DNA from: Candidatus Syntropharchaeum caldarium | GTDB taxonomy: Archaea > Halobacteriota > Syntropharchaeia > Syntropharchaeales > Syntropharchaeaceae | DNA length: 32,000 nucleotides | NCBI GenBank assembly: GCA_001766815.1 | Contig: LYOS01000001.1 | Span: forward strand, 300,001-332,000 | Direction of reading: 5' to 3' | Shown: one piece after another, positions 4,681-26,701 of the stretch | Layout: each line of letters begins with the position of its first letter | Numbering within the stretch: the first letter of the stretch is position 1 | Position numbers and translations under genes: made by a program | The notes under the pieces: model-generated | The model's input: only the letters and a program-made list of their open reading frames with translations | Databases searched by the model: none | What the model was told of the DNA's origin: nothing

Positions 4681-4706
4681 CCGGGCGGAATCCCGGTTTT
4701 TATTTA
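4681..4706 (+). terminator. candidate terminator: short GC hairpin followed by a T-tract
   Basis: 'CCGGG-CGGAAT-CCCGG' (5-bp stem) is directly followed by 'TTTTTATTT', 24 nt after the paralog-2 stop. Confidence 0.35.
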
Positions 4707-4734
4707 ATTTGAATGAAGTAAGGAGGTATGGCGA

Positions 4735-6000: not shown

Positions 6001-6027
6001 GTGCTTTCCTTTTATCTTTATATCAAT

Positions 6028-6801: not shown

Positions 6802-7526
6802 ATGCAACATGGTACTATTTTGAGAGAGATCTCGTTAAATGGATCCGCGGAAAGGTGACGGTATTCTCACATCTGGTGACCCCTGCGGCATGGCTCATAT
6901 TTGTTGGGCTTACACTCCCTGTGACATTCACTGATAATTATCTTGAGTATCTCACTCCCGGTATCATGGTGATGAGTGTACTCTTCGCAGCTCTCCAGAG
7001 CGGAAACCTCGTAATATTTGATAAAGTACTGGGATTTCTGAATAAGTTTTTTGCCATGCCTCCACCGAGAGAGAGTTATCTCTTTGGCACGATCCTGTTT
7101 ATAACATTTCGGGGCATTATACAGGCAACTGTGATATTTTGTGTCGCAGTCTTGCTTGGAATTACAATCTACAGCCTGAAGAGCGTTCTCTTAACCTACG
7201 TTGTCCTGTTCCTCTTTGGAATACTCTTTGCCTCGATTGCAACAACCATCGCACTTGCGGTTGATGACCACGATGGATATGCTGCGATAAACAGCATGAT
7301 CAGTATGCCCCTATTTTTCACAAGCACAGCTCTGATGCCCTATGATAAGATGCCAGACTGGCTCCAGATGGTGGCATCGGTGAATCCGGTAAGCTATGCT
7401 ATCGATAACGCGAGAGCGCTCCTGAGTGGAAGCAATCCGGTGATAGGGGAGATTGTGATGCTTGCAGTGGGGGCTGTGATCGTACTTACGATCTGTAGTT
7501 ATCTCTTCAGGAGAGCGACATTGTGA
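6798..7526 (+). CDS. ABC-2 type transporter permease
   Basis: 242 aa with about 6 hydrophobic segments. It is translationally coupled to the ABC-2 ATPase gene. Confidence 0.75.
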
Positions 7527-7548
7527 TACGAACTGTACAGATAAGGAG

Positions 7549-9651: not shown

Positions 9652-12600
9652 AGATTGGATGCATCATGTGGAGCGGGTACATTGCAACAATGGCAGAGGC
9701 TGCACGTGAGCTTGACTTTCTTGAGATGAACCTCAAATCTCTGAAGGATCTTGAGGATGCAAGAAAGCGGGGTGAGTTTCTCGATTACCTTGAGAATGAA
9801 GCTGATGTAATCCTTGTGTTGCACTCAGGCTTCGACGGGACGCTCGATGAGATTCTATCCCAGGTCAAGGATAAGTTTATCATATCTTTTGGCTACACAG
9901 CCTCCTTCCTCTCTTCAAGAGTGAGTGCCAGGCAGGTAGGTATGATCTACCGTTACCTGAGACACGGTGGGATCGAGAACCATAAAAACGCTCTTACCTA
10001 TATCGCAAAGGAGTTCTTCGGGATCGATATTGAGGTTGAACCTCCAGCAGAGACGCCGTGGGATGGGATATATCACCCCAGGTCTCCTGTTCCTTTCTAC
10101 TCGATCGAGGATTATATCGAGTGGTATGGAGAGGAGCGGATGGGGAGAAATCCAACTGCTGGATTGATCTTCTACAAGACTCACCTTGTCATGGAGAATC
10201 CGGAGCTTGAAGATGCCATCATTGAGGCACTGGAAAAACGAGGGATCAACGTCATTCCGGTATTCTCATGGGGCTTTCCAAACCAGGAGCTTGGAATTAG
10301 GGAGAACCATGACGTCATTAACGATTACTTTATGAGAGATGGCAAACCCATCATAGATCTCCTGATCGATCTCCAATCCTCATTCCTGATACATACTGGT
10401 GATAGAAGTATTCTGGAAGAGATGGACGTCCCGATCATAAAGGGTGTGATCGTATATCATAGAAGTGAGGATGAGTGGCAGGATGATGAACATGGGCTTG
10501 GTGGTGAGCTTGTATGGTCGGTTGTCATGCCCGAGTTTGAGGGGATAATAGAGCCACTTGTTGCAGGTTCAAGGGTGAGAGAGGAGATAGGAGGAGGGAC
10601 ATTTGAACGCTTCTCTCCGATAGAAGAGCGAGTTTCTCATCTCGCAGATAGGGTTTTGAAGTGGGTCAATCTCAGGAAAAAACCAAAAATAGAGCGAAAG
10701 ATCGTGTTCATCCTTCATAACAATCCATGTTCAGGGCTTGAGGCAAACGTTGGTGGAGGATCAAACCTCGATACACTCGAGAGCGTCGTAAGGATTCTGA
10801 AAAGGATGAAAGAAGAGGGCTACTCGATAGAAGATATACCAGCTGATGGCAGAGAGCTTATAGATCGGATAATGGATAGAAAGGCAATATCAGACTTCAG
10901 GTGGACATCTGTTGATGAGATCGTTGAGAAAGGTGGTGCGATTTACCTTCTTGATGAAGAAGATTACAGGTCATGGTTTGATGGACTCCCCGCTGATGTT
11001 AGGGAGAGGATGATCGAAAGCTGGGGCACACCTCCAGGGAATGCGATGGTATATGATGGCAGAATCGTTATAACCGGGCTTGATCTTGGGAATGTGCTTG
11101 TTTGCACCCAGCCAAAGCGGGGATGTTATGGTGCAAGATGTGATGGAAGTGTCTGTAAGATCCTCCATGATCCAGATGTTCCACCAACACATCAGTATCT
11201 TGCGACATACAGGTTTTTTGAGAGGGTCTGGGGTGCGGACGGAATCGTGCACGTCGGCACGCACGGAAACATCGAGTTTCTACCAGGAAAGTCTGTTGGG
11301 CTTTCAGGAAGCTGTTATCCGGATATTGCGATTGGAAGTCTGCCCCACCTCTACATCTACTCGGTTGATAACCCTTCGGAAGGTATCGTTGCAAAGCGAA
11401 GGTCGTATGCGACACTTGTAGATTATATGCTCCCTGTGATGACCGCAAGCGGAACGTATGGAAAACTAAATGAGCTTGAGCAGCTTCTGGGAGAGTATGA
11501 GCTTGCAAAGGTGGGAGATCATGCAAGGGCGCATGCACTTGAGCATCTGTTACTTGAGGCGATCGATGAGGCGAATCTCGGTGATGAGATCGGATTTTCT
11601 GAGGAGATGGCATTTGAAGAGGTTGTAAAAATAACACATGATGCAATCTCGAGGATAAAAGGATCGCTTATAAACAGGGGGCTCCACATATTCGGAGAAG
11701 TTCCAGAGGGGGAAATGAAGGTTGAGCTTATAACATCGATGATACGTTTCGATGAGGATGTGAAGAAGCTCTTTGATAATGATCGGGATCGTCTCAGGGA
11801 GGCTGTATCAGGTATCCTTGAGGGTAAAGATGACGTGATCGCTCCCCAGGTTAAAGACATCTCAGAAAGGATCGATCGCTGCAAAAATGAGATCGATAAT
11901 CTTCTTCATGGATTTGACGGAGGTTACATAGAACCAGGACCCTCCGGACTTCCAACCCGGGGCAGGTGGGATGTGCTTCCCACAGGAAGAAACTTCTACA
12001 CACTCGATCCAACAAGAATTCCCACGAGGGCTGCATGGAGGGTTGGAAGGAAGCTTGCAACAGGTTTAATAGAAAAGTATGAGCGTGAGACTGGCAGGAT
12101 TCCTGAAAACTGCGGGATGATACTCTTCTCAACCGATATAACATGGGCAGATGGTGAGGAGCTTTCACAGATCTTTTACCTCATAGGCGTTGAACCTGAA
12201 TGGGATGAATCTGGAAGGGTCAACGGGTTCAGAATAATCCCGCTTGATGAGCTTGGAAGACCGAGGATCGATGTTACTGTGAGAATCAGCGGGATAATGA
12301 GAGATTCATTCATGCAGATCATTGAACTTCTCGATGAGGCGATAAGACGGGTTTCAGAGCTTGATGAACCCCCTGAGCTGAATTTTATTAGAAAGCATGC
12401 GCTGGCGCAGGCAAACGCAGGACAGGAGTGGTCGCGTGCTGCAACAAGGATATTTGGATCAAAGCCAGGGACGTACGGTGCAGGGGTTAACCTTGCGGTC
12501 AATGCATCGGCATGGAAAGATGAAGAGGATCTTGCTGATGTATTTGTTTACTGGAGTGGCTATGCCTATGGAAAAGGAATCGATGGTAAGGAATCACACG

Positions 12601-13280
12601 AGGAACTTTTGAATCAGCTTAAAACAGTTGATCTCTCCTTCAGATCCAACCCAACTGATGAGCATGATCTCTTCGGATGCTGCTGCTACTTCGGATATCA
12701 TGGAGGATTGACCGTTGCTGCACGCTCCCTTTCAGGGAAAGAGGTTAAGGCTTACCATGGTGATACGAGAGATCCTTCAGATGTACGGGTGACAGATCTC
12801 AAAGATGAGATAAAGCGGGTTGTGAGGACAAAGCTCCTCAATCCAAAGTGGATCGAGGGGATGAAGGAGCATGGATACAGGGGGGCGTCTGAGATCTCTG
12901 GCAAGGTTACAAGGGTTTATGGCTGGCAGGCAACCACGCGTGAGGTGGATGACTGGGTCTTCGATGATATAGCCCGGACGTATATTCTTGATGATGATAT
13001 GCGAGCGTTCTTTGAGGAGAACAACCCTTATGCACTTGAGGAGATGGGAAGAAGGCTACTGGAGGCTTATGAACGGGATCTCTGGGACCCTGATCCTGAA
13101 GTCTTGGATGAACTTAAGAGATACTACTTGGAGATCGAGGGATGGATCGAGGGGCGAATGGGAGGTGTCTCCGGGGTCCAGGGAGGATCGATCGATGTTT
13201 TTACGATGGAAGAGGTTGAGGAGTGGAAGGGAAAGATGGAGAAGGTTGCAAAATGGACAAAGGAAACAGATCTAAAGTGA
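9648..13280 (+). CDS. cobN: CobN/ChlH-family class I chelatase large subunit
   Basis: 1210 aa with the family motif '[15 protein letters not shown]' and a '[12 protein letters not shown]' region. It is coupled to the ChlID gene. The metal and tetrapyrrole substrates are unknown. Confidence 0.9.
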
Positions 13281-14368
13281 GCAGATCAGAGGTAAAAGAA
13301 GAATACAGAAGTTTTATCCGGCAGAGGATCCTCTTCGTCCTCATACTCCTTGTGATCACGCCACTTCTTGTGGGCTATGCTGCAACGCTTGGCTCCGCCG
13401 ATATATCTGTAAAGGCTGCCTATGATGCGATACTCCATAGGTTCTTCCCTGATCGTTTCAATCCTGCACCAACTGAAAAGCTTGATTCTGGTACGATCGT
13501 GACAATCCTCTGGACATTGCGACTTCCAAGGATCGTGCTTGGCATCCTTGCAGGGATCGGTCTTGCTCTTGCAGGAGCTGTGATGCAGGCGATACTCAAA
13601 AACCCCCTTGCATCTCCTTATACCTTAGGGATAGCATCGGCCGCATCCTTTGGTGCATCGCTTGCGATAATACTTGGGGTTGGATTGGTTGGAGGAGAAC
13701 ATCTCATCATCGCAAACGCCTTTATATTCGCGATGATCGCAGCGTTACTCATCTATCTGCTCTCGATAAAGAGAACCTCACCTGAGATGATGGTGCTTGC
13801 AGGTATTGCGATCATGTATCTATTCTCTGCGATGACCTCCTCACTCCAGTATATGGGAGAGGCAGAAGAGGTTCAGGAAGTGGTTTACTGGATGTTTGGA
13901 TCACTCGGCAGGGCAGACTGGGAATCATCGTTCCCGTATGGGAATATCGGGATCATCGCGATGGTACTTCTTGTCACAATCCCATATCTGCTCTTGAAGT
14001 CATGGGACCTCAATGCTTTAGGAGCAGGGGATGAGACCGCAAAGAGCCTCGGTGTGAGGGTTGAACGGATCAGAATAACCTGCATGTTCATCGCATCCTT
14101 TATAACAGCATCGATAATAGCTTTCACAGGCACGATCGGTTTCATAGGGCTTGTCTGCCCACATATAACAAGGATGATGATCGGATCTGATCACAGGTTT
14201 CTTCTACCTGGGACATGCCTCACAGGTGCGGTGCTCCTGCTTGCTACAGATACGGTTGCAAGAACGATTGTTGCACCTGTGATACTTCCTGTCGGAATCG
14301 TGACAGCTTTTATGGGTGTTCCGCTCTTTGTGTATCTTCTGATGAGGCAGAGGGGTGGTTACTGGTGA
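13277..14368 (+). CDS. FecCD-family (BtuC/FepD-like) ABC permease
   Basis: Multi-span hydrophobic protein with typical 'LRLPRIVLGILAGIGLALAGAVMQ' and 'GAGDETAKSLGV' motifs. The start is uncertain: the GTG at 13277 gives a GTGA overlap with the cobN stop, and ATGs at 13223 and 13253 are also in frame. Confidence 0.85.
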   Translation: MSRSEVKEEYRSFIRQRILFVLILLVITPLLVGYAATLGSADISVKAAYDAILHRFFPDRFNPAPTEKLDSGTIVTILWTLRLPRIVLGILAGIGLALAGAVMQAILKNPLASPYTLGIASAASFGASLAIILGVGLVGGEHLIIANAFIFAMIAALLIYLLSIKRTSPEMMVLAGIAIMYLFSAMTSSLQYMGEAEEVQEVVYWMFGSLGRADWESSFPYGNIGIIAMVLLVTIPYLLLKSWDLNALGAGDETAKSLGVRVERIRITCMFIASFITASIIAFTGTIGFIGLVCPHITRMMIGSDHRFLLPGTCLTGAVLLLATDTVARTIVAPVILPVGIVTAFMGVPLFVYLLMRQRGGYW

Positions 14369-15138
14369 AGCTTAAGATAAAAGATCTCACGTTCAGTTAT
14401 CCAGGCCATACGATACTTGATGGTATTACGGTCGAGATTGAGCCTTCAGAGTTCTTCGGTATCATAGGTCCAAACGGGACAGGTAAGACCACGCTCATAA
14501 AGTGCATCGACACAATCCTGAAGCCACACGGCGGTTGCGTCATGCTTGATGGAATGGAAGTGAGAGATCTTGATAAACGAGAGCTTGCAAGAAAGATCGG
14601 ATATGTTCCGCAGCATGCTCCAGGAGGCTTTCCTGCCACGGTATTTGATACGATTCTGATGGGAAGGCGTCCCTATATCGGATGGCGAGTCACGGAGAGC
14701 GATATTGATAAGGTTCTTGAGACCGTGGAACTTCTCGGGATAGAGGAGTTATCACTTCGCACCTTCAGTGAATTAAGCGGTGGTGAGCGGCAGAAGGTAC
14801 TGGTTGCCCGTGCACTCTGTCAGGACCCGGAAGTTCTCCTCCTGGATGAGCCGACATCCAATCTCGATATTAAGCACCAGCTTGAAGTCATGAAGATAAT
14901 ACAGACGATCACAAAAAAGCGTGGAATCCTGGCGATAATGGCGATCCATGATCTCAATTTAGCCTCCCGTTATGCAGACAGGGTCGCGATGATGCACGGG
15001 GGAAAGATTGCAGCGGTTGGTACGCCCGAGGATGTGCTAACCGTTGAGAACATAAGATCGGTCTATGGCGTTGAGGTCGCTGTCAGGAACGATGGGGGTA
15101 AGCCATATATTCTACCTATAAGACCTGTGGAAGTTTGA
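14365..15138 (+). CDS. FepC/BtuD-type ABC ATP-binding protein
   Basis: Walker A 'GPNGTGKTT', signature 'LSGGERQKV', Walker B 'VLLLDEPTSNLD', H-loop 'AIHDLN'. The GTG start at 14365 ('VKLKIKDLTF') overlaps the permease stop (GTGA). The track ORF from 14215 would lie inside the permease gene. Confidence 0.9.
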   Translation: MKLKIKDLTFSYPGHTILDGITVEIEPSEFFGIIGPNGTGKTTLIKCIDTILKPHGGCVMLDGMEVRDLDKRELARKIGYVPQHAPGGFPATVFDTILMGRRPYIGWRVTESDIDKVLETVELLGIEELSLRTFSELSGGERQKVLVARALCQDPEVLLLDEPTSNLDIKHQLEVMKIIQTITKKRGILAIMAIHDLNLASRYADRVAMMHGGKIAAVGTPEDVLTVENIRSVYGVEVAVRNDGGKPYILPIRPVEV

Positions 15139-15216
15139 GGATGAAAGTTCCCTGGTAAAGGCTGAGAGATGGGATGTATCCGATGTTGAAGCAGAAAACG
15201 ATAGAATAGATACCTG

Positions 15217-15330
15217 GTTATTCATAATAACATTGCTATAATAATTTTTTATTAATTAAGACTCCAATTCAATCATGATTTTATGAGGAATGGAGGTATT
15301 ATTGAACGAATCTGAACATAACATAGTTTA
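15217..15330 (+). promoter_or_regulatory. candidate mcr operon promoter/leader, homologous to the promoter and 5' end of the binding-protein gene at 1992-2076
   Basis: TATA-like 'TTTATTAATTAAG' at 15248-15260 is identical to 1992-2004. A 6-3-6 palindrome 'GTTATTCATAATAAC' lies at 15217-15231. A relic RBS 'GGAGG' and a relic start codon (ATG->ACG at 15306-15308) follow. The mcrB ATG is at 15429, implying a long leader. Confidence 0.5.
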
Positions 15331-15428
15331 ATAAAGTTATGGGATGTGATTACGGGGTGGAACAAAAAAGAATGCTAATAACAATAATTATATATAGTAG
15401 ATGGGTAATTACATGGTGGAGGAATTAC

Positions 15429-16784
15429 ATGCCATACCCATATTTAAAAGATAGGGTTAGTCTATACAGTGACCGTGGAGAGGTCCTTGCGGAAGATGTA
15501 CCAATCGAAGCAATATCTCCTCTTCACAACCCAGGCGCACAGCAGGTGAAAGACACACTTTGCCGAACCATTCTCTGGAATGCAGAAGAAGCAGAGTATA
15601 AGATAAAGTCAGGGCACCTTGGGGATGAATATATCCACATACCGCGGACGCCATGGCTAGCAATGGAAGATTATGAAATCATGGCGAACATCGAGAAGAT
15701 CGCCAAGCGTGTCGAGGAACTTTTAAGGACAGCACCTGATGATGATACCGAGGTTCAGATACTGAGGGGAGGGCGTTATCTATTGGTTAGGCCACCAACA
15801 AGGCTTGCCTGGTGTGGTATTGAATACCAGACAGCACTGACGAACGTGGCTTACGCCATTGAGCAGGCGTGCGTTGATGTCTGTGATGCTGACTGGAGAA
15901 CATATCCATACATCCATGCCGCCATCTATGGGAGATTCCCGCAGACACCTGAGTATGACGGTTCATCACTCAGATGGATGCTGAAGCCTGTTATCGAGGA
16001 TGAAAACCCGGGCTATGCTCTCAGGAACATGCTGATCAACCATATTGCAGCATGTACAAGATCAAGAACACTTGAGGCTGCCGCCCTATGTTCGCTCCTT
16101 GAGACGATATCAGTTGTCGAGATGGGTGAAATGCTTGGACCATGGTACAGGCACTACCTAATGACGATGGCGTACCAGGGTTTCAATGGAAACGATCTCG
16201 TGCGAGATATACTGAAGGAATGCGGGCAGAACGGTACAATGGCAGATGTCGTTGCATATACGGTCGAGCGAATGATTGATGATGGCGTAATAAAGGAGAA
16301 GAAAACCTTCCCGTCTGGTTACAAGATGTATGAGAGTGTGGATGAGGATCTCAGACATGCCTACCTGTCTTCTGGTATGCTTGCAGCAACCATCGTGAAC
16401 TGTGGTTCAGCCAGGGCAGCACAGGGTGTCATGACCAGTATCTATTACTTCAATGACCAGATGGAAATGGAAACCGCACTGCCATGCACAGGATATGGTG
16501 TCTCGATGGGAACAGCTCTTGCATCAGGGTTCTTCTCGCACACGATCTACGGTGGTTCAGCGCCGGGTCTCTACTCAGGAAACCACGTCATCACCAAGAC
16601 AGGTAAGGTTTACTATATGCCATGTTATGCAGCAGCAGTTGCGATCGATGCTGGAACACAGACCTGGACACCCGAGATGACATCCGAGTTTGTCGGTGAC
16701 GTCTACTCAGAGATCGACATCATCCGTGAGCCGATGGAAGCTATCGCGGAAGGTGCGCTCGAGATAAAGAGTAAGTTTGAATGA
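15429..16784 (+). CDS. mcrB: methyl/alkyl-coenzyme M reductase beta subunit (divergent)
   Basis: The N-terminus 'DRVSLYSDRGEVLAEDVPIEAISPLHNP' matches the McrB consensus ('DLYDDRG..L...VPLEA.SPL.NP'). 'PGYALRNMLINH', 'GSARAAQGV' and 'GFFSHTIYGGSAPG' (beta Phe361/Phe362/Tyr367 region) are all present. The ATG at 15429 is preceded by 'GGAGGAATTAC'; the track ORF start at 15339 is rejected. Confidence 0.93.
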   Translation: MPYPYLKDRVSLYSDRGEVLAEDVPIEAISPLHNPGAQQVKDTLCRTILWNAEEAEYKIKSGHLGDEYIHIPRTPWLAMEDYEIMANIEKIAKRVEELLRTAPDDDTEVQILRGGRYLLVRPPTRLAWCGIEYQTALTNVAYAIEQACVDVCDADWRTYPYIHAAIYGRFPQTPEYDGSSLRWMLKPVIEDENPGYALRNMLINHIAACTRSRTLEAAALCSLLETISVVEMGEMLGPWYRHYLMTMAYQGFNGNDLVRDILKECGQNGTMADVVAYTVERMIDDGVIKEKKTFPSGYKMYESVDEDLRHAYLSSGMLAATIVNCGSARAAQGVMTSIYYFNDQMEMETALPCTGYGVSMGTALASGFFSHTIYGGSAPGLYSGNHVITKTGKVYYMPCYAAAVAIDAGTQTWTPEMTSEFVGDVYSEIDIIREPMEAIAEGALEIKSKFE

Positions 16785-16795
16785 GGTGATCTAAA

Positions 16796-17638
16796 ATGGG
16801 TGCTGAAGAAATTTTAAAGCAGCAGGTTGAAGCTGCCAAAGAAAGGATGGCAAAGCGAAAGTACCAGCGTCAGTATTACCCTGGAAGCACGATGGTTCCC
16901 GAAAACAGAAGGAAGTTCTATGATCCAATCAGGCCACTTGAGGTATTGAGAACGCTTACAGATGAGGACTTCCAGAACCTGCTTGGTTTCAGGGCGCTTG
17001 GACAGCGTTATCTCTCGGTTCACCCACCACTCGAGGAGATCGGTGAGCCAGACGATCCTATACGAGAGCTTGTCCCTGCAGATGCAGGTGCAAAGGCTGG
17101 TGATCGTATCACAACAATGGTGATGAGTGACTCACTGACACACCCGCTCATCGGTCCTTATACCAGAATCTGGATGTATCTTAATCGATTCAGGGGGATC
17201 GATGGCGCTTCATACTCTGCGCGAACAACGCTCGAGATGAGAGAGCGAGAGATGGAAGGTGTCTCTCGTGTCATCATCGAGGCCGAGTGCTTCGATCCTG
17301 CGAGGGATGCATTCAGGCAGTTCGGATGTACTGGGGCGTCATCCAGGCTTGACAAAAACGGGCTCTTCTTTGATCCGATGGCACGAATCGAATACGATCC
17401 TTCAACAGGACACTACATGCAGGTGAAGGACGGATTCGGCATTCCGCTGGATAAACCTGTCGATCTCGGTCCAACACTCCCTGAAGAAGAGAAGGCAAAG
17501 CGAAACGTCATGTACATGAATACAGATGGAAATCCTGTACTTGCAGGTCCTGAGTGGGAAGTACTGGTCGTCAAGCGAAGGATACAGGCGCTGAGGTTCC
17601 TTGCAGGGATGGGACCGTATAAGTTGAATGGTAAGTGA
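16796..17638 (+). CDS. mcrG: methyl/alkyl-coenzyme M reductase gamma subunit (divergent, approx. 25-aa N-terminal extension)
   Basis: 'QYYPGSTMVPENRRKF', 'SVHPPLEEIGEPDDPIRELV', 'GAKAGDR', 'YLNRFRG' and 'FDPAR' match McrG hallmarks. It is 280 aa versus the usual ~250 aa. Confidence 0.92.
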   Translation: MGAEEILKQQVEAAKERMAKRKYQRQYYPGSTMVPENRRKFYDPIRPLEVLRTLTDEDFQNLLGFRALGQRYLSVHPPLEEIGEPDDPIRELVPADAGAKAGDRITTMVMSDSLTHPLIGPYTRIWMYLNRFRGIDGASYSARTTLEMREREMEGVSRVIIEAECFDPARDAFRQFGCTGASSRLDKNGLFFDPMARIEYDPSTGHYMQVKDGFGIPLDKPVDLGPTLPEEEKAKRNVMYMNTDGNPVLAGPEWEVLVVKRRIQALRFLAGMGPYKLNGK

Positions 17639-17648
17639 GGTGATATGA

Positions 17649-19850
17649 ATGGCAGAAGAAATTAAACTTGATCCTGAACTTCTTGCAAAGCTCTGTGAGC
17701 GAAAGATACGATCATGGCAGACCGATAATGCAGAACTCCTGAAAGCTACCAGGGCCGATCTGACTGAAGCCGAGCGTGCAGAGCTTCTCGAGAAGATGTA
17801 TGACGATGAAGAGGCGCTCAAGAAGGTTTTCCAGACCATGGGAAATCCGCAAGTGGCTGTTGGGATGGAATTTACCAGAGAGGGAGGAGATATCAGTGAC
17901 GAGGAGATGAAGGAAATCTGTGATCGATGGGGACTCACAAGAGAAGAAGTCGATCAGATATGTGATGAACTCTGGATCTCCGAACGTGATATTGCAACCT
18001 GTCCTGGTTTCCTCTTCGGAAGAGGTGTTCCACATCCGGACCAGGGAGACACCCCCGAGGCTAAAGATGATCCAACCCAGTCGATCTGGTACCACCGCCT
18101 GATGAAGACACAGATGCAGCTTGCGATGCACGAGTATGGAACGTACCAGCGTGCGATGAATGAGTCGGTACTGGCAAAAGGTTTTGGCGTGGAAGATGTA
18201 CGCGAAGAGACAACCGAGTATCCAGCAGGAGGTATCAGTCAGGTTCCAGAGAAGCTTGAATATGTTAAGGTCTCAAAGGAGATCGAGAAGCAGCGTGGTA
18301 TCTCACTCTACAGACCACACCTGCACTGGCATGGTATCGAGCTTGGACAGAAGCCATACGTCAAGTGGAAGATAACCGCAACGCATATGCAGCGACCATG
18401 CAGGACTTTCGATGGTCTCTCGATGGAACAGATAAACTTCCTGAACAACGCAGCCTGCCACCAGTGGATGGCTGATGTCCAGCGGACACACATATTCGGT
18501 CTGGATCTTGCCCACAGAACGGTTGAGAGACGATTCGGTAAGGAGGTTACCCCTGACTCGATCAACCTGTACATGGAGATGCACAACCACAACATCGCAG
18601 CAGGTTCACTGATCATGGAACACATCGGTGAGACTGATCCAAGGCTTGTTGCAGACTCCTATGTCAAGATTATAACAGGCAACGAGGCGATGCTCGAGGT
18701 GCTCGATCCACAGTACATAATCGATGTGAGGCAACTCTTCCCCGAGTATCAGGCATCACAGATCATGAACCAGATCGGTGATAAGCTCTTTGAGGTTGCA
18801 CGTATCCCGACACTTATCACGATGATAGGTGATCACGGGACAACAAGAGGATGGACAGGACAGCAGGCATCACTTGCGTTCCTCTCAGCATACAGAATCC
18901 CTGCAGGTGAGGCAGTAACAAGTGACTTCGTCTATACGGTTAAGCATGGAGATAACATTTTCATGGGTAACAGGTTGCCATGGAGGCGTGCCAAGATGGT
19001 AAACAATCCTGGCGGTGTATCATTTGGATATGCAGCCGATATATCACAGGCATCACGAGCTCCTGAGTCACAGGATCCATTTGATCCAGTGAACGTCTTC
19101 CTCGAGAGTGTGGCATGGTCTGGATACTATGATATCGGGTATCTCCACAACTACCTTGCAGGCGGTTCATCTGGATGGACACAGGTCATGATCACCCAGG
19201 GCTACTGCTCAGATATCGACAACGACTTCTGTTACAGGACACTCGATGCTGATACAATGACCCACTTCATGGGACTTGACTTTGCACCAACAAGTATGGA
19301 CTCACTCTACACTGCAACTGAAGGTATCGTTAAGTACGGTATGGAGTACTTTGACAAGATGCCGATCGCTCAGGAAACACTCTACGGAGGGCTCCAGCGC
19401 GCAGCTCTGATCTCAGCAGTCGGAGGTGCATCCACGGCATACTTCTGCAGAACTCCAACCTTTGGACTGCCTGGATTCTACCACGGTCTCCTGCTTTGTA
19501 AGGAAGGCTGGAACAGGCTCGGATTCTATGCATCCGATGGTCCACACCAGCAGGGAACATTCCATGCATACACCCTCATCGGTGAGTATGGAGGTCCACT
19601 TGAGTTAAGAGGTCCAAACTACCCAGACTACAACTGGTCAGTCGCACATCTTGGTATATACACTGCATACGTCAATGGGCCACACTTCCTCTGTGGACAT
19701 GGATACTCATGCAACCCGATCGTACACGGAGCATTCGCAGATCCATCGCTACTCTTTGACTTTGCCCACGTAAGAAGAGAGGTTGCAAGAGGAGCGGTCC
19801 ATGAGTTTATGCCCGCAGGTGAGCGTGACGTCGTTATACCGGCACACTGA
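17649..19850 (+). CDS. mcrA: methyl/alkyl-coenzyme M reductase alpha subunit, highly divergent (733 aa; long N-terminal extension; altered active-site motifs)
   Basis: Conserved McrA blocks: 'FLNNAACHQWMADVQRT', 'RRFGKEVTPDSINLY', 'VARIPT', 'VKHG...LPWRRAK..NPGGVSFGY', 'GGLQRA', 'RLGFY', 'ELRGPNYPDY', 'NPIVHGAFAD', 'EFMPAGERDVVIPA'. The first canonical block (KRGIP.YNPD-like 'KQRGISLYRP') only starts at residue ~214. Confidence 0.93.
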   Translation: MAEEIKLDPELLAKLCERKIRSWQTDNAELLKATRADLTEAERAELLEKMYDDEEALKKVFQTMGNPQVAVGMEFTREGGDISDEEMKEICDRWGLTREEVDQICDELWISERDIATCPGFLFGRGVPHPDQGDTPEAKDDPTQSIWYHRLMKTQMQLAMHEYGTYQRAMNESVLAKGFGVEDVREETTEYPAGGISQVPEKLEYVKVSKEIEKQRGISLYRPHLHWHGIELGQKPYVKWKITATHMQRPCRTFDGLSMEQINFLNNAACHQWMADVQRTHIFGLDLAHRTVERRFGKEVTPDSINLYMEMHNHNIAAGSLIMEHIGETDPRLVADSYVKIITGNEAMLEVLDPQYIIDVRQLFPEYQASQIMNQIGDKLFEVARIPTLITMIGDHGTTRGWTGQQASLAFLSAYRIPAGEAVTSDFVYTVKHGDNIFMGNRLPWRRAKMVNNPGGVSFGYAADISQASRAPESQDPFDPVNVFLESVAWSGYYDIGYLHNYLAGGSSGWTQVMITQGYCSDIDNDFCYRTLDADTMTHFMGLDFAPTSMDSLYTATEGIVKYGMEYFDKMPIAQETLYGGLQRAALISAVGGASTAYFCRTPTFGLPGFYHGLLLCKEGWNRLGFYASDGPHQQGTFHAYTLIGEYGGPLELRGPNYPDYNWSVAHLGIYTAYVNGPHFLCGHGYSCNPIVHGAFADPSLLFDFAHVRREVARGAVHEFMPAGERDVVIPAH

Positions 19851-19864
19851 GGAGGTAGTTAAAA

Positions 19865-20395
19865 ATGGTACTAACATTTGCATCACCCGAATGGTGTGAG
19901 GCTATAGGGAAGAGTATCAGCGAGGGACCACACAGTCACTGGTTCAAGTCATGTATGGAGGATCTCAAGGCAGGACTTGGTATCGGTGAGATTACGATGG
20001 TTGCAAGAGCGACTGATGCTAACGTCGCACTGGTCTGCGAGCTTACAACCGATGGTTGCAAGAACTGCTACATGACAACAGATCCTGATAGTGTACCAGA
20101 TGTCTTTATCGAGCTTTCTGGGACGCTGCACTCATGGCTCTCCGTACTCTGCGGACTCCAGCCAACATTTACAACGCTGGTTGGCCCCGTCTCATCGGAT
20201 ATCGACCGCAGGATCAACATAACGAAGTTTGCGGGAGGAATGGAAAATATCCCTTCACAGATCATGAAACCACTACCGTTGAACCTGCTGTACGCAGTCA
20301 CGCATGCTATAAAGGATGTCTGCATAGGACCAACCGATGTGACAGAGGTTCCAGGTGTGAATCTGGATATACTGATGGGCAGGGTGCACCACTAA
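19865..20395 (+). CDS. hypothetical protein, possibly SCP2-like hydrophobic-ligand-binding fold
   Basis: 176 aa, starting 14 nt after mcrA with a GGAGG RBS. The pattern 'SPEWCEAIGKSI...', a central 'ELTTDGCKNCYMTTDPD..PDVFIELSGTLHSWLSVLCG.L.P' and a helical tail resemble SCP2-type domains. This is a weak by-eye call with no similarity to McrC or McrD. Confidence 0.35.
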   Translation: MVLTFASPEWCEAIGKSISEGPHSHWFKSCMEDLKAGLGIGEITMVARATDANVALVCELTTDGCKNCYMTTDPDSVPDVFIELSGTLHSWLSVLCGLQPTFTTLVGPVSSDIDRRINITKFAGGMENIPSQIMKPLPLNLLYAVTHAIKDVCIGPTDVTEVPGVNLDILMGRVHH

Positions 20396-20408
20396 GGAGG
20401 GATGTTAA

Positions 20409-20822
20409 ATGACTGTTGACAAACCAGAACGAGAAACAGAGATCGCGGGACACAAGGTGAGGATCTACCCGGATCCATCATACCCGAGGCTCTCATGGGA
20501 AGAGGACTACGGCGCACCTGGACATAAGTTCCAGCTCAAAGGTGCAAACGCAGCAGGTCCATGTATTGTGAAGTGTCCAACCTGTGGACACACAATGCGC
20601 AAGTGGCACCTGCCGGGGAAGGCGTTCATCGTGCCACCTGACAGGAAGATCGCAAAGACCGTCTTTGAGTACTGTTCAAAGTGCGGCTCTATTATCGTCC
20701 TGAATGGTGTGCTTGCATCACCATGGGTTTCACCGGAACGTGTCAAGTGTCCCTACGACCTGAGCATAAAGAAGTTCAGTAAGCAGGAAAGAGAAGTTTT
20801 GCCAGACGATAGAGGGTGGTAA
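20409..20822 (+). CDS. small zinc-ribbon protein (4-Cys), function unknown
   Basis: 137 aa with 'CPTCGH' ... 'CSKCGS' about 35 residues apart. An AAGGAGG RBS is present, 13 nt after the preceding stop. Confidence 0.6.
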   Translation: MTVDKPERETEIAGHKVRIYPDPSYPRLSWEEDYGAPGHKFQLKGANAAGPCIVKCPTCGHTMRKWHLPGKAFIVPPDRKIAKTVFEYCSKCGSIIVLNGVLASPWVSPERVKCPYDLSIKKFSKQEREVLPDDRGW

Positions 20823-20828
20823 TACCCC

Positions 20829-20846
20829 TCTTTCTTTTATTTTTGT
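20829..20846 (+). terminator. T-rich tract, possible partial or attenuating archaeal terminator inside the operon
   Basis: 'CTTTCTTTTATTTTTG' lies directly after the zinc-ribbon gene stop. It is the only oligo-T intergenic tract between mcrB and the end of the operon. Confidence 0.25.
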
Positions 20847-20855
20847 GAGGTTTTG

Positions 20856-21365
20856 ATGGACGACGAACTCGATGAAATACGGCAGAAGAAGCTTGATGAG
20901 CTGACAGAAAAGATGGGAATCCAGGTGATGCAGAAGAAAGAGCGTAAGGTGGAGGAAGATGATGGTGGAATCTATGATCTTGTACTTCCCGGATGGATAC
21001 CACCATGGGTTGCAGAGAAGATTGCTCCCGAGGTGGGTGTTGAGCTTGTGGAGCGAAAGATACAGGGAGTGGTAACAGATCCTGAGACAGGTGCACCATC
21101 TGATATGATGAAGATGGCGCTGTGCATCAGGGGATCGCTTAACGACATAGAACGATTCAAAATGGCAGCGGTTGAACAGCTCAAGCAGTTTATGAAGAGT
21201 ACAAGTGAGCGAAAACTCACAGAACCATCAAGCTGGTGGAAACACTATCATATCGACGAATGGGATGATGTCAGAAAGAACAAGAACTATGACCCTGATG
21301 AAGAATGGAAGAGGTTTAAGAAAGCGGGGTTGGATAAATTCAACATTGAAGAAGTTTTTAAATGA
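20856..21365 (+). CDS. acidic hypothetical protein
   Basis: 169 aa from the ATG at 20856 (the track starts at an adjacent TTG, 20853). The N-terminal helix 'DDELDEIRQKKLDEL' is reminiscent of PDCD5-like proteins, but the rest is unrecognised. The C-terminus is Trp/Asp-rich. Confidence 0.55.
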   Translation: MDDELDEIRQKKLDELTEKMGIQVMQKKERKVEEDDGGIYDLVLPGWIPPWVAEKIAPEVGVELVERKIQGVVTDPETGAPSDMMKMALCIRGSLNDIERFKMAAVEQLKQFMKSTSERKLTEPSSWWKHYHIDEWDDVRKNKNYDPDEEWKRFKKAGLDKFNIEEVFK

Positions 21366-21368
21366 TAG

Positions 21369-22946
21369 ATGCAACTGCTTAAATTAAAAAATGTATCACT
21401 TGTTCTGAATGAAACAGAGTTACTTAGCTGTTTAAATTTTGAGATCAATGAGCAGGATATCATTGGTATCACTGGCAGGCGTGGTGCTGGAAAAAGCCTG
21501 CTACTACATCTGATAAAAGGGGTCGAGGGATACGAACCTGTAGCAGGAGAGATACGCTATCACATACGTTTCTGTGAAAGATGTAAACGTGTGGAGTTAC
21601 CTTCAAAGCCCACCTGTCCGATCTGCCACTCGCAGATGGAATTGCTCGATATAGACCTGCATGCTGATAAACAGATCCATGACGCGATAAAAAGACGTGT
21701 AGGACTGATGTTTCAGAAGACACAGGCACTCTTCTCATTCAGAACTGTGGAGGAGAATATACTCGAAGCCCTCAGAACAGCAAAGTTCCCATATGAGATG
21801 CGGGATGAGCGTACCCGTGAGATCATCGAGATGATGAATATAACACATAGAAGGGAGTTTGCCTGTATGGATTTGAGCTGTGGTGAGAAGCAACGGGTAA
21901 TAGTTGGGAGACTCATCGCACTCGACCCGCTCCTGATGCTCCTTGATTCGCCAGAAAGTTTCCTTGATCCTTTAACCACCTCGATGATCTGCAGTGCGAT
22001 ACGTGCTGCAGGTCTCACGGTTATGATGAGTTCATCGAGACCTCAAATATTCGAAGGTATCGCTGACAGGATACTTTTTCTCGATAAAGGAAAGATTGAG
22101 CAGTTTGACAGGGTCGATCCAGAGATGTTTGTGCAATCCACGCAATTAACTCCCACGCAAAGATCAGAAGGGGCGCCCCTCATACGGCTTAAAGGCGTAT
22201 GTAAGTACTATGCCATGCCGGTAAACCTCTACAGCAAAGAAGCGACGCATGTCAGGGCGGTTGACGATCTTGATATCACAATCCAGCGGGGTGAGATACA
22301 CGGGCTTGTGGGTGTAAGTGGATCTGGAAAGAGCACGATTCTCAAGATTATCTGGGGAGATGAGAAGACAAAAGATTTTAGGGGTAACTGCGAGTTCACA
22401 TTCACTGATGGAAGATATCGCCTGGATAGTCTGGAGGCGATCGCTCGTGCACGTACTCACATCTCATATCTTGGTCAGGACTCGTGTCTAATTCCATCCC
22501 GTACGATCTTCGATAACCTGAAGTCCTTTATCGCTGAAGATAAATTGCGGGAAGCAGCAATCGATAATGCTATGGAAGTCTTACTGCGCTTTGGATTTAG
22601 TGAGGAGGAGGTGCTCTCGCTCTATGATCGATTGCCATCTGAGATCAGTGCAGGTGAGGCACAGTTAATACTTATATCGATGGCAATTCTCCGCGATCCG
22701 GAGGTGATCCTGCTCGATGATCCCACATCTGCACTTGATGCTCAATCTGCAGCAAAACTTGCAGACGTGATACTTCAGATCAGAGCTACGTGTGGAACCT
22801 CGTTCCTCATAGCTTCAAACGACACCGATCTTCTTACAATATGTGATCATATTGATCTGATTCAGGAAGGACGCATGGCATACTGTGGCACGTCTCTCAA
22901 TGAATGCCTTAAGATCATGGACATAAACAATTCCCAAAGCTTATAA
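21369..22946 (+). CDS. atwA: methyl-coenzyme M reductase system component A2-like protein (tandem ABC ATPase domains)
   Basis: 525 aa with two ABC domains. The first is 'GITGRRGAGKSLLLHLIKGVEGYEPVAGEIRYHIRFCERCKRVELPSKPTCPICHS', that is, Walker A followed by the Cys4 insert remembered as typical of component A2. Signatures are 'LSCGEKQRV' and 'ISAGEAQLI'. The second Walker A is 'GVSGSGKST'. Confidence 0.8.
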   Translation: MQLLKLKNVSLVLNETELLSCLNFEINEQDIIGITGRRGAGKSLLLHLIKGVEGYEPVAGEIRYHIRFCERCKRVELPSKPTCPICHSQMELLDIDLHADKQIHDAIKRRVGLMFQKTQALFSFRTVEENILEALRTAKFPYEMRDERTREIIEMMNITHRREFACMDLSCGEKQRVIVGRLIALDPLLMLLDSPESFLDPLTTSMICSAIRAAGLTVMMSSSRPQIFEGIADRILFLDKGKIEQFDRVDPEMFVQSTQLTPTQRSEGAPLIRLKGVCKYYAMPVNLYSKEATHVRAVDDLDITIQRGEIHGLVGVSGSGKSTILKIIWGDEKTKDFRGNCEFTFTDGRYRLDSLEAIARARTHISYLGQDSCLIPSRTIFDNLKSFIAEDKLREAAIDNAMEVLLRFGFSEEEVLSLYDRLPSEISAGEAQLILISMAILRDPEVILLDDPTSALDAQSAAKLADVILQIRATCGTSFLIASNDTDLLTICDHIDLIQEGRMAYCGTSLNECLKIMDINNSQSL

Positions 22947-22970
22947 GGACGTGCAAACAATTACCTAACT

Positions 22971-23561
22971 ATGGTTCTTAAAGTTGACTTTGAAGAGATA
23001 GCAATGGGTAAGGGTGTCTATCCAACGCTGGCGGTGGGTGTACGCATCGAGAGTCCTGAACCATTTCAGGTTGTAGAACTCTTAAGCTGTGTGTGCACGA
23101 TCGAGACTGCTTTTAACGAAGAATCGATGATATTTCTGGGGTACGCACCGATCAGAGACTATCCGCAGATTGCAGAACATGCGCTTGTTGCGTTTGACAT
23201 TGAGCTCGATGGAAGAAAGCTTGCAACCATTGAAGAGCTGCGTGATGGCGGCGATCTCTGGTTACGTCTTGGAGGCGTCATGAAATATGCTGTCCTCTAT
23301 GAGCCAACAGAGTTTGGGTACGATAAGACGAAAGTTGTAAGGGATACCTTCGTGGTCAGGCAATTTGGACAGGCAAGAATACGTGTCGAGAAGGAAGAGT
23401 GGGAAAATTATCTATCGTTCCTCGCGCTCAAGCGAACAGTGTTGCTTGACACAGATACCATCACAAAGCTCGATAAGGTAAGGCCCATGATAAATCCTGA
23501 GTATGAGGACAGGGACATCATCAACGAATTGCTGGAGATGTATCTGAAGAAAAAAATTTAA
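22971..23561 (+). CDS. hypothetical protein
   Basis: 196-aa ORF, co-oriented, 24 nt after the A2-like gene and 9 nt before the chaperonin-like gene. No recognisable motif. Confidence 0.55.
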   Translation: MVLKVDFEEIAMGKGVYPTLAVGVRIESPEPFQVVELLSCVCTIETAFNEESMIFLGYAPIRDYPQIAEHALVAFDIELDGRKLATIEELRDGGDLWLRLGGVMKYAVLYEPTEFGYDKTKVVRDTFVVRQFGQARIRVEKEEWENYLSFLALKRTVLLDTDTITKLDKVRPMINPEYEDRDIINELLEMYLKKKI

Positions 23562-23570
23562 GGAGAAGCA

Positions 23571-25370
23571 ATGGCTGTAGATAAAAGAGAAAAGATACGA
23601 TATTTCAAAAAAACGCTCGAAGAGGAAGCGCAGCGGGCGATGCAGGAGTTCCAGATACATCAGGCTATTGCCGCAGAGGTAGCGAGGGAGCGCAAAATTG
23701 AAGAGCCAAAAAAAGTGCTGGATGAGAACATATCGGTGATAAGGGCATTCCATGACGCCGTAAAAACAGCATTTGGTCCCCGGGGTTCGTATAAGATGAT
23801 GGTGGATTCCTATGGTGAAGTCGATGTCACATGTGACGGTTCACTCATCATCGATGAGATGGATATAGAGCATCCAGCAGGCAAGATGCTGGCATCCACA
23901 ATCGAGAACCTGAACGAACTTGGGGATGGTGCGACAAAGACGGTGATACTCACAGGAGCACTCCTCAGGGAGGCAGAATCACTGATTTCGATGAAGATAC
24001 ATCCTGCTACGGTCATACGGGGCTATGAACTTGCATCGGCCTTTATTAGAGATACACTCAATGATCTGGCCATCGTGAGTGATGACGCCACATTGCTTGA
24101 GGTTGCAAGAACATCGCTTACCTCCCTCCCTGATCTTTCCGATGAACTGCATGAGCGTATCGCCGCGACGGTCGTCGATGTTGCAAAGTCGGTAACTGAG
24201 GAGGATGAAGTAGGGAAGAGAATAGTACAGCGAAAACGTGTGTGCGTGGAGCGGTCTGTTGGTGGAAGCACGTCTGAGCTTGAAACCCTGGATGGCATCA
24301 TTATCAACAGAGATCTTCTTGATGAAGATATGCCAGATCGTGTGGAAGATGCGAGGATTGCGTTGCTTGACTTCCCGCTGGAGATAAAGATGAAACGCGT
24401 GGAAGAGAAGTTCATGCGCGAGCGGCAGGGTAGTGATAAGCCGTATATTGCAATTAATGCTCCACCAGGTGTCAGCCCTGTGAAGGCGATGCTGGATCAT
24501 CTCGACAGGTTGATGCAGGATGATATCGATAAGTTGCAGCGTCTTGGTGTCAATGTTCTCTTCTGTCACAGGACGATCGATGAGGTTGCTAAGCGCTATC
24601 TAACAAAAGCCGGGATATTTGCGGTAAAACGGGTGGAAAGTAGTGTTCTCAGGGATCTTGAGAAGACCACCGGTGCAAAGACTGTAATTCTGCTTAAAGA
24701 TCTTTGCGAGGATGATATAGGAACCGCCTCGCTTGTTGAAGTGAGAAGATTTGGCAGAAACACGATGATCGTGGTTGAAGGCTGTCCTGGCGAGAGATTC
24801 AGGTCGGTTATGCTTCGAGGTGGAACACTTCATTCGATAAATGAGGTCCAGCGCGCATTTATGCGAACACTTAAGGTGGTTGCAGCTGCTATCGAGGAGA
24901 ATAAAGTGATCACTGGGGGTGGGCATACCGAGATTGAACTTGCGTTACGCCTCAGAACGTACGCCAATAGACTTTCAGGGAAGGAGCAGTTTGCAGTCTT
25001 ATCGTACGCAGATGCCCTTGAGATGGTCCCTGCAGCACTTGCAGAGAATATGGGCTATAACAGGGTTGATAAAATCGTTGAACTACGTTCAAAGCACAGA
25101 TCAGGCGATAAAATCGATACGAAACTGGTTGAACCACTCAGGATAGAGCGGCAGGTGGTATCTTCGGCAACAGAGCTTGCATGCGCCCTGCTAAGGATAG
25201 ATTACCAGATAAATGCCAAGAACAAGCTATCGACGCTGGATCAACAGTCCGTGGAACCACACCCAGATACTCCATCGGAATGCTTAGAGTATATGGCACC
25301 GCGACAGTGGGGCCTATGGGATGCACGAATGCGCACAGACAAGAGATCAGTTTACTGGAAGAATGACTGA
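23571..25370 (+). CDS. thermosome-like group II chaperonin (Cpn60/TCP-1 family) homologue, divergent
   Basis: 'AFGPRGSYKMMVDSYGEVDVTCDGSLIIDEMDIEHPAGKM', 'LGDGATKTVILTGALLREAE', 'IHPATVIRGYELA', 'GVNVLFCHRTIDEVAKRYLTKAGIFAVKRV' and 'VITGGGHTEIELALRL' align block-for-block with thermosome subunits. It has a ~45-aa N-terminal extension and an atypical Trp-rich C-terminus. An AAGGAG RBS is present. Confidence 0.85.
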   Translation: MAVDKREKIRYFKKTLEEEAQRAMQEFQIHQAIAAEVARERKIEEPKKVLDENISVIRAFHDAVKTAFGPRGSYKMMVDSYGEVDVTCDGSLIIDEMDIEHPAGKMLASTIENLNELGDGATKTVILTGALLREAESLISMKIHPATVIRGYELASAFIRDTLNDLAIVSDDATLLEVARTSLTSLPDLSDELHERIAATVVDVAKSVTEEDEVGKRIVQRKRVCVERSVGGSTSELETLDGIIINRDLLDEDMPDRVEDARIALLDFPLEIKMKRVEEKFMRERQGSDKPYIAINAPPGVSPVKAMLDHLDRLMQDDIDKLQRLGVNVLFCHRTIDEVAKRYLTKAGIFAVKRVESSVLRDLEKTTGAKTVILLKDLCEDDIGTASLVEVRRFGRNTMIVVEGCPGERFRSVMLRGGTLHSINEVQRAFMRTLKVVAAAIEENKVITGGGHTEIELALRLRTYANRLSGKEQFAVLSYADALEMVPAALAENMGYNRVDKIVELRSKHRSGDKIDTKLVEPLRIERQVVSSATELACALLRIDYQINAKNKLSTLDQQSVEPHPDTPSECLEYMAPRQWGLWDARMRTDKRSVYWKND

Positions 25371-26701
25371 GCCCGATGCTCTTTCACGATCCGTGTAACA
25401 AGAACTGCTTCCCTGCTTGGGTCTTTCAATCCTGAAAGCACCTTTTTATATTTTTTATCAGTCAGCGCAGAGGGTAGTGGGGATGCTGCGATCGCAGTGA
25501 GATATAACTCCAGCATTCTGCGCTCTGCCACGGTGAGATTGTGTCGCTTCCCGATTCTGGTATCATCCATCTTAAGTACCGGATTCTCATCGTCATCAAG
25601 TTCCATGACCCGTGCTGCAAGCGCAGTGCCAGGGATGGGTGATGCTATGTTGACGAATACTTCCTCGAGCATCAGCTCACCGATCAGCTCTTTTGTGGCT
25701 TCATGGTCATCCTCAGTCTCGCCAGGATAGCCTGTGATAAACGCACCGATTACCATCCTGATGCCGCAATCACGCGCCATTTCGACAGCTTCGATGATAC
25801 GATCCACGTTTATCCCCTTATTCATCTCATTAAGGATGCGGTTGCTGCCTGACTCGATGCCAAAGGAGATGTAGCCTGCTGTATAGTCACGGATCGCCTC
25901 AAGTGCATGTTCTGAGACCATATCCACCCTGACATCAGCACACTTTACGTTCTTTGGGCCAAGGATACCACTCACTGTTTTGAGCAGTTCTGTGAAGGCG
26001 ATCTCGTTCAGACCCTTATCCCAGCCGTATTGTGTCACGGTCTCAAGTCCAAGCCCGATGCTCTCTATTCCGTGTTTTTTCAGGAGTTTGACCTCTTTCA
26101 CGATCTCTTCCAGTGGTCTCGATCTTATATCACTGCCAAAGAGTCGATGAGCGAGACAGAAGCTGCACCTCCCACCACATCCCCTGTGCGTCTCGATTGC
26201 GGTTGAAACACCGCGCATATCATGATGTTTAAGATCTGGTGGTATGAACGGCATCGAGCGCTTCTCGATCTCAAAAGGCTTTCTCGATCCGGTTACAACG
26301 ACCTCACCATCATGAACGAAGGCAATTCCCTCGATACCTTCAGGATCTTTCACTCCTGCTCTGACTGCATCCAGGAGTTCAGGTGTTGTCTCCTCTCCTT
26401 CTCCGATTACAACGAAATCGATCTCAGGCAGGTACTCAAAGATCAGTTCAGGTACAAGTGAGAGTGAACCTCCTGCTATAATCAGCGGTGGATTGATGCC
26501 ATGTTTTATCTTGAAGAGTTCTGCTTTCAGATCCAGAAGGTGCGTGGTTGCACCAAGACTTAAACCCAGCACATCTGTCTCAAGCGACCAGTCAAAGGCT
26601 TTTCTGATCTCAACTTTATAACCCTCATCATGCAGGGTCCCACCTATAACCATGGCACCGTACGCATAAAAATCTGGAGATATAAGTGTTATCTTCTTCA
26701 T
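25352..26701 (-). CDS. B12-binding-domain radical SAM protein (class B radical SAM, COG1032-like)
   Basis: An N-terminal Rossmann-like B12-binding domain ('KITLISPDFYAYGAMVIGGTL...IIAGGSL') is followed by the CX3CX2C motif 'GCGGRCSFC'. 449 aa. The 3' end overlaps the convergent chaperonin-like gene by 19 nt. Confidence 0.85.
   Translation of the reverse strand: MKKITLISPDFYAYGAMVIGGTLHDEGYKVEIRKAFDWSLETDVLGLSLGATTHLLDLKAELFKIKHGINPPLIIAGGSLSLVPELIFEYLPEIDFVVIGEGEETTPELLDAVRAGVKDPEGIEGIAFVHDGEVVVTGSRKPFEIEKRSMPFIPPDLKHHDMRGVSTAIETHRGCGGRCSFCLAHRLFGSDIRSRPLEEIVKEVKLLKKHGIESIGLGLETVTQYGWDKGLNEIAFTELLKTVSGILGPKNVKCADVRVDMVSEHALEAIRDYTAGYISFGIESGSNRILNEMNKGINVDRIIEAVEMARDCGIRMVIGAFITGYPGETEDDHEATKELIGELMLEEVFVNIASPIPGTALAARVMELDDDENPVLKMDDTRIGKRHNLTVAERRMLELYLTAIAASPLPSALTDKKYKKVLSGLKDPSREAVLVTRIVKEHRAQSFFQ

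Follow-up and report, generated by a model that had tools for sequence, protein, structure and literature searches.

Active alkyl-coenzyme M reductases (ACRs) are hard to make outside their uncultured hosts, a difficulty that reviews attribute to unknown accessory proteins (PMC9081873; PMC9118554). What, then, are the four small genes—here called P4, P5, P6 and P8, and all annotated as encoding a 'hypothetical protein'—that lie among the genes for such a reductase in the butane-oxidising archaeon Ca. Syntrophoarchaeum caldarius? They fall within a stretch of 32,000 nucleotides (GenBank assembly GCA_001766815.1, contig LYOS01000001.1, positions 300,001 to 332,000 of the forward strand; hereafter the window), and exact look-ups identified the part under study as SCAL_000352-357 (OFV68676-OFV68681). 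An initial annotation had proposed them as ACR-specific accessory factors embedded in the operon in place of mcrC and mcrD. We find that the four genes probably belong to a gene island that makes and activates one alkyl-coenzyme M (alkyl-CoM) reductase and that is organised in three modules. On present sequence evidence they are credible candidate helpers of that enzyme, not replacements for McrC or McrD; every physical interaction and biochemical role given to them below is one that we infer, with synteny as the evidence for the roles.

The features of the locus are as follows (coordinates in the window, strand, identity).

15429-16784, +, mcrB, beta subunit of a divergent alkyl-CoM reductase (Pfam MCR_beta_N and MCR_beta; TIGR03257 at 425 bits, below the equivalog cut-off of 516)
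16796-17638, +, mcrG, gamma subunit (Pfam MCR_gamma, E 5.9e-67)
17649-19850, +, mcrA, alpha subunit (OFV68676) of 733 aa with an N-terminal extension of ~175 residues (Pfam MCR_alpha; 7b1s best in PDB)
19865-20395, +, P4, 176-aa protein with predicted SCP2 fold (OFV68677, SCAL_000353; AlphaFold2 model and Foldseek)
20409-20822, +, P5, 137-aa basic zinc-ribbon protein (OFV68678; invariant CPTC and CxKC pairs)
20814-20846, +, terminator-like hairpin and T-rich tract across the P5 stop codon (terminator scan)
20856-21365, +, P6, 169-aa acidic, Trp-rich protein (OFV68679) abutting A2 (open reading frame and homologues)
21369-22946, +, divergent component A2, an AtwA-type double ATP-binding cassette (ABC) ATPase with a zinc motif (TIGR03269; PDB 8s7v_K/9h1l)
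22971-23561, +, P8, 196-aa orphan protein (OFV68681) coupled to the thermosome gene (open reading frame and homologues)
23571-25370, +, divergent group II chaperonin, a thermosome paralogue with an unusual C-terminal tail (Pfam Cpn60_TCP1, E 6.7e-118)
25352-26701, -, McrA glutamine C-methyltransferase (B12 radical SAM), convergent (TIGR04014 at 461.6 bits, above the cut-off of 360)

Coordinates and lengths of the four small open reading frames (ORFs) agreed exactly with the initial annotation, as did the gaps after mcrA of 14, 13, 33, 3, 24 and 9 nt. GGAGG-type ribosome-binding sites precede mcrB, mcrG, mcrA, P4, P5, P6 and the thermosome gene, as had also been described; A2 and P8 are without an obvious site of this type upstream. 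The subunits of the reductase score under the NCBIfam equivalog cut-offs for methanogens' methyl-coenzyme M reductase (MCR), as would be expected of an alkyl-CoM reductase.

A sister species (loci L002 and L003) keeps the order mcrA (733 aa)-P4-P5-P6-A2, with identities of 72% for P4, 80% for P5 and 75% for P6, next to 88% for McrA and 84% for A2. Ratios of nonsynonymous to synonymous substitution (dN/dS) in this comparison were 0.32, 0.18 and 0.27 for P4, P5 and P6, respectively, and 0.13 for McrA and 0.25 for A2. For P8, a 46%-identical homologue exists elsewhere (loci L008 and L013). Judging by these dN/dS values and by the homologues in other lineages, the four small ORFs are genuine lineage-restricted genes. 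Their families are new, very rare and very narrowly distributed as far as sequence searches can tell; 1.84 billion representatives, scanned exhaustively with HMMER, contained only three clusters for P8 (at 99%, 46% and 28% identity), and a metagenome scan with the P5 alignment returned the same species only.

None of the four had struck the initial annotation as resembling McrC or McrD, and this holds. Neither MCR_C, MCR_D, Mmp nor DUF2098 families were matched in Pfam or NCBIfam even at E ≤ 10; P4, P6 and P8 gave zero matches of any kind to these collections at E ≤ 0.1, and at E ≤ 10 isolated, chance-level matches to unrelated families. Sequence profile searches of a PDB set in which the MCR activation complex (8s7v, 9h1l) and the MCR-McrD complex (8gf5) are present came back empty for the small proteins, and Foldseek produced no McrC or McrD match, the P4 model matching SCP2 instead and the P8 model being poor. 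We therefore dropped homology to McrC, McrD, Mmp proteins or DUF2098 as a candidate after these negative Pfam, NCBIfam and PDB profile searches. That the genes stand in place of mcrC and mcrD is a different claim, and it is unsupported. Operons of alkane oxidisers are mostly mcrBGA or mcrBAG and are said to be without mcrD, McrC and McrD acting in trans (PMC9584954), so a bare mcrBGA is normal in these organisms; and Boyd et al. reported that Ca. Syntrophoarchaeum has homologues of mcrC and mcrD (PMC6474303), which makes replacement the wrong framing. Gene order nonetheless sets the locus apart, with mcrBGA followed by new genes here and mcrBDCGA in known systems.

The proposed core operon and its extended alpha subunit

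The closest solved relative of this McrA is the ethyl-CoM reductase (ECR) of Ca. Ethanoperedens thermophilum (7b1s; E 6.6e-151, covering residues 188-733), which, unlike the protein encoded here, is without the ~175-residue N-terminal domain. Lemaire and Wagner considered the extension 'suspicious' and possibly the product of a mis-annotated start (PMC9118554). We find it (window positions 17649-18173) to be 77% identical in L002, over the first 200 aa, and 51% identical in L004, with the motifs EEALKKV, YTREG.D..EEMKE.C..WG.T.E.V..ICDE.W.SE.D and DPTQS..YHR in common. This conservation across lineages marks the extension as real coding sequence and probably as an extra domain.

P4 and P5 follow mcrA directly in three lineages—S. 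caldarius, its sister species (L002/L003) and L004, a metagenome-assembled genome labelled Ca. Methanospirareceae—and all three also have the McrA extension. L004 encodes a McrA of 746 aa (62% identical) in the order mcrB-mcrG-mcrA-P4-P5, followed by a class I S-adenosylmethionine-dependent methyltransferase gene (9191-10069) and then the end of the contig. P4 and P5 are absent from two ACR loci whose McrA is without the extension, L005 (McrA 47% identical) and L006 (31%). The label 'ACR-specific' thus suits P4 and P5, which go with the extended clade of McrA, but not P6 and P8, which track A2 and the thermosome rather than the reductase.

Within the solved activation complex, the N-terminal helix of McrA is unfolded and gripped by the C-terminal domain of Mmp3 and by A2, and McrD reportedly recognises this part of McrA too (PMC12176620). 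This grip supplies a rationale for dedicated partners where the N-terminus is extended; partners adapted to an enzyme that is longer by 175 residues at this end would plausibly be required.

For P4, the initial annotation had guessed at an SCP2-like protein. Homologues lie right after mcrA in L002 (72% identical) and L004 (28%, E 3.5e-20), and an AlphaFold2 model built from three sequences had a mean predicted local distance difference test score (pLDDT) of 62, rising to ~80 over residues 10-90. Residues 8-95 (pLDDT 78-89) are modelled as helix-helix-four strands-helix, and the best Foldseek match in the PDB was the SCP2-like protein TT1886 (1wfr; E 1.9e-5, probability 1.00, TM-scores 0.52/0.61), with further matches to AF1534 (putative SCP2), SCP2-like domains of alkylsulfatases, UbiJ-SCP2 and rabbit SCP2; SCP2 domains made up ~20 of the best 50 matches. 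The model thus shows P4 to have an SCP2-like predicted fold, bearing out the guess at the level of fold (1wfr, E 1.9e-5) but not at that of sequence, where Pfam was negative. P4 shares the helix-helix-beta-sheet-helix topology of the SCP2 superfamily (TT1886 1wfr, AF1534 3bn8, UbiJ-SCP2, C-terminal domains of alkylsulfatases), several of the matched domains of which bind alkyl chains or isoprenoid lipids, and differs from it in ~60 extra, poorly modelled C-terminal residues. A literature search for SCP2 with alkyl-coenzyme M found no SCP2 protein described beside an MCR-family enzyme.

The four-Cys zinc-ribbon description of P5 proved apt. Two CxxC knuckles ~30 residues apart (C56/C59 and C89/C92), together with C52, are invariant in the three lineages, and matches to Pfam zinc-ribbon families all fell under their cut-offs (E 0.005-0.1). 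Since the C-terminal 91 residues of P5 are 60% identical in L004, where McrA has 62% (and P4 28%), P5 appears, by sequence identity, to be about as constrained as the catalytic subunit.

The initial annotation had read 15429-25370 as one transcription unit. The T-tract that it marked after P5 is real (20827-20846); the + strand of 15139-25500 has just one other T-rich 18-mer, ~70 nt past the thermosome stop codon. The hairpin and T-tract after P5 are conserved in three lineages (with copies in L002, where the tract is longer, in L007 and in L004), which argues against a single unit and suggests two, namely a core of mcrBGA-P4-P5 and a second unit of P6-A2-P8-thermosome, perhaps with read-through.

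In the first module of the island, mcrB-mcrG-mcrA-P4-P5 would be the core operon of the ACR clade with the ~175-residue N-terminal domain in its alpha subunit. P5 would most likely bind the reductase tightly, as a small partner or an additional subunit, and the fast-evolving P4 would most likely keep a ligand of hydrophobic or amphipathic character at the enzyme, for instance the alkane, alkyl-CoM or coenzyme B.

Genes paired with component A2 and the thermosome

P6 is acidic and Trp-rich, as had been noted (isoelectric point 5.0, six Trp). Its stop codon lies 3 nt from the start of A2 in S. caldarius, and it abuts A2 in L002 also. A2 itself matches TIGR03269 over its full length at 343 bits, below the equivalog cut-off of 517, and is hence divergent; its residues 1-517 match the A2 chain of the activation complex (8s7v_K/9h1l; E 3.4e-93), with the Cys motif aligned. 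At 9 nt downstream of P8, the chaperonin matches Cpn60_TCP1 over its full length, scores 434 bits against thermosome_beta (cut-off 400) and falls short of TIGR02339 (438 bits, cut-off 671). In L008 and L013, a gap of 1 nt separates the 46%-identical homologue of P8 from the thermosome paralogue downstream of it, which is 41% identical to the S. caldarius copy.

Thermosomes usually end in a Gly/Met-rich tail. The paralogues in S. caldarius (25200-25370) and in L008/L013 (L013 7380-7548) have in common the tail PHPDTP..EYM..GLWDAR..YW, so that on sequence they look like a distinct chaperonin subfamily.

Locus L013 (12.8 kb) brings the following genes together in one neighbourhood.

McrA glutamine C-methyltransferase (TIGR04014, 483 bits; 63% identical to the S. 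caldarius copy)
Mmp17 (TIGR03291, 104 bits, above the cut-off of 67)
bona fide A2 (TIGR03269, 534 bits, above the cut-off of 517)
P6 homologue of 174 aa, directly after A2 (34% identical, E 2e-24)
Mmp3 of 308 aa, without the N-terminal ~207 residues (8s7v_J residues 208-496, E 9e-46)
P8 homologue (46% identical)
thermosome paralogue (41% identical)
CobM/CbiF-like tetrapyrrole methylase, after the thermosome gene

At 2026-3469 on the minus strand of L013, the P6 homologue stands directly upstream of the short Mmp3 (8 nt are shared), at the position that the absent N-terminal domain would take. We considered P6 as a detached Mmp3 N-terminal domain (residues 1-207), and sequence gave no support, leaving a positional observation: neither P6 nor its L013 homologue matched TIGR03268, and the P6 profile missed the Mmp3 chain (8s7v_J) in the PDB. 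A thioredoxin-like P6 was also rejected, its one lead in the PDB being an N-terminal helix similar to Trx-3 (4xhm, E 0.6), and hhalign against E. coli TrxA giving a probability of 0.2. No fold could be assigned to P8, for which the best Foldseek matches reached only E 5.7e-3 and were to generic beta-sandwiches (LEA14, Asf1, arrestin-like), from a poor model.

Gene order in two distant lineages indicates that P6 travels with A2 and P8 with the thermosome, amid genes for MCR activation and maturation. More widely, other genomes (L002/L003, L004, L008 and L013) also have the small genes in company with genes of the MCR family or of MCR maturation. The proposal of accessory factors is thus supported in part, by conserved synteny and neighbouring MCR genes.

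The cluster invites comparison with two known systems. Like the MCR activation complex (McrC-Mmp7-Mmp17-Mmp3-A2-DUF2098; 8s7v, 9h1l), it encodes small accessory proteins with or near mcr and has an A2 homologue inside it, and the neighbours of the P6 and P8 homologues in L013 include Mmp17, Mmp3 and A2. As differences from McrC, McrD and that complex, we could find no sequence similarity of P4, P5, P6 and P8, and no fold similarity of the P4 and P8 models, to the known components, and a thermosome paralogue belongs to the cluster here, whereas a chaperonin is no described component of the complex. The pairing of a group II chaperonin gene with a small gene recalls archaeal thermosomes and their co-chaperones, such as prefoldin; P8, however, is without a prefoldin or Hsp20 signature, and the chaperonin is divergent, has a non-canonical conserved tail and sits among MCR maturation genes. 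Our literature searches found no paper tying thermosomes, SCP2 or atwA to alkyl-CoM reductases or Syntrophoarchaeum.

The second module would pair P6 with the divergent A2 ATPase, which powers the reductive activation of F430; in the third, a thermosome paralogue dedicated to folding or assembling the reductase would have P8 as its partner, adaptor or co-chaperone.

Surrounding genes

The convergent McrA glutamine C-methyltransferase gene overlaps the 3′ end of the thermosome gene by 19 nt. Directly 5′ of mcrB lies a co-oriented block (2050-15138) encoding three Peripla_BP_2 binding proteins, ABC ATPases and permeases, among them a FecCD permease and its ATPase, together with a ChlI/ChlD-type 'putative cobaltochelatase' (7549-9651; TIGR02442, 791 bits) and CobN (9648-13280). 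It looks like a block for metal or tetrapyrrole uptake and chelation beside an F430 enzyme. An Opp/Nik-type ABC transporter lies just outside the start of the window (L014).

At the ACR locus L006 (8281-12475), a McrA of 623 aa of the S. butanivorans type (OFV67021 cluster) is preceded by proteins of 375 and 183 aa that gave no Pfam MCR_beta or MCR_gamma match even at E ≤ 10. A 195-aa ORF after this McrA seemed SCP2-like by eye and was rejected when hhalign against the P4 family and Pfam both proved negative. At L005, mcrBGA is followed (11830-14842) by TP_methylase and then CfbE and CfbD. Methyltransferase genes recur by ACR and maturation clusters (TP_methylase in L005 and L008/L013, the class I methyltransferase gene after P5 in L004, and one upstream in the window at 1097-1918) and may have to do with the methylated forms of F430 that have been reported from alkane oxidisers.

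Alternative explanations and implications

The same observations could be read in other ways. P4 and P5 might be permanent extra subunits, making a five-subunit, N-terminally extended ACR, rather than transient factors for assembly, delivery or activation. We hold this to be unlikely, though the least so of the alternatives; tight gene spacing, strong ribosome-binding sites, the terminator-like tract conserved right after P5 in three lineages, a P5 conserved about like McrA (60% versus 62%) and the presence of P4 and P5 only where the McrA extension occurs would all suit it, but P4 has changed far more quickly than the catalytic subunits (28% versus 62-76% identity) and solved MCR and ECR structures show three subunit types only. 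That the four ORFs are the standard accessory set in disguise, as highly diverged homologues of McrC, McrD, Mmp proteins or DUF2098, seems very improbable. Their sizes are similar (15-23 kDa, compared with 10.6-24 kDa for DUF2098, Mmp17 and McrC; PMC12176620), small ORFs adjoin A2, and the P6 homologue of L013 sits directly upstream of an Mmp3 without its N-terminal ~207 residues. Set against this are the searches of Pfam, NCBIfam and the PDB described above, all of them negative, a P4 fold that matches SCP2 and not McrD, the normal Mmp17 that L013 has alongside its P6 and P8 homologues, and the mcrC and mcrD homologues that Syntrophoarchaeum is reported to have of its own (PMC6474303).

A further alternative divorces the small genes from the reductase altogether: they would lie beside mcr by chance, either as fillers peculiar to the lineage or as partners of a generic ABC ATPase and of a chaperonin for general stress. 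Tiny families, a distant P8 relative in an unrelated neighbourhood and the terminator-like tract that parts P6-A2-P8-thermosome from mcrBGA would be consistent with that. Yet gene order has been kept despite saturated synonymous sites (proportion of synonymous differences, pS, about 0.8-0.9) in comparisons with L004 and L008, the ATPase is component A2 and not a transporter subunit, L013 has the same genes together with Mmp17, Mmp3 and the McrA glutamine methyltransferase, and the small ORFs are under purifying selection; we consider this reading quite doubtful. Several observations do weigh against the gene island that we favour. The synteny comes from few lineages (three for P4 and P5; two for P6 and for P8), and GTDB representative genomes, scanned with McrA and with the P5 alignment, gave no relatives. 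L013 carries no mcr gene, and the 28%-identical relative of P8 lies beside DUF4145 with no mcr or thermosome gene nearby. The structural models are of medium confidence for P4 (mean pLDDT 62) and poor for P8 (pLDDT 59.6, predicted template modelling score 0.43; a beta-sandwich and three helices), and the Pfam families SCP2, SCP2_2 and Alkyl_sulf_C miss P4 and its L002 and L004 homologues even at E ≤ 10.

A gene island in three modules for making and activating one reductase remains our preferred explanation. Less likely, in our view, is the stronger proposition that one ACR clade has its own, previously unrecognised system of maturation and activation, comprising the extra McrA domain with P4 as ligand carrier and P5 as subunit, a divergent A2 with P6 as a new adaptor replacing the N-terminal domain of Mmp3, and a dedicated thermosome paralogue with P8 as its co-factor. 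If that were true, these genes would be the missing parts for active ACRs in a heterologous host. A2, Mmp3 and McrD-type factors grip the N-terminus of McrA in methanogens (PMC12176620), and the conserved McrA extension bears on how factors of these kinds could act on this enzyme. P4, P5, P6 and P8 are new protein families that attach to a system of a known kind, the MCR accessory machinery, and the main value of the cluster lies in the short, testable list of candidates that it offers for ACR assembly and activation: P4 and P5 for one reductase clade, P6 as a partner of A2, and P8 with its dedicated chaperonin.

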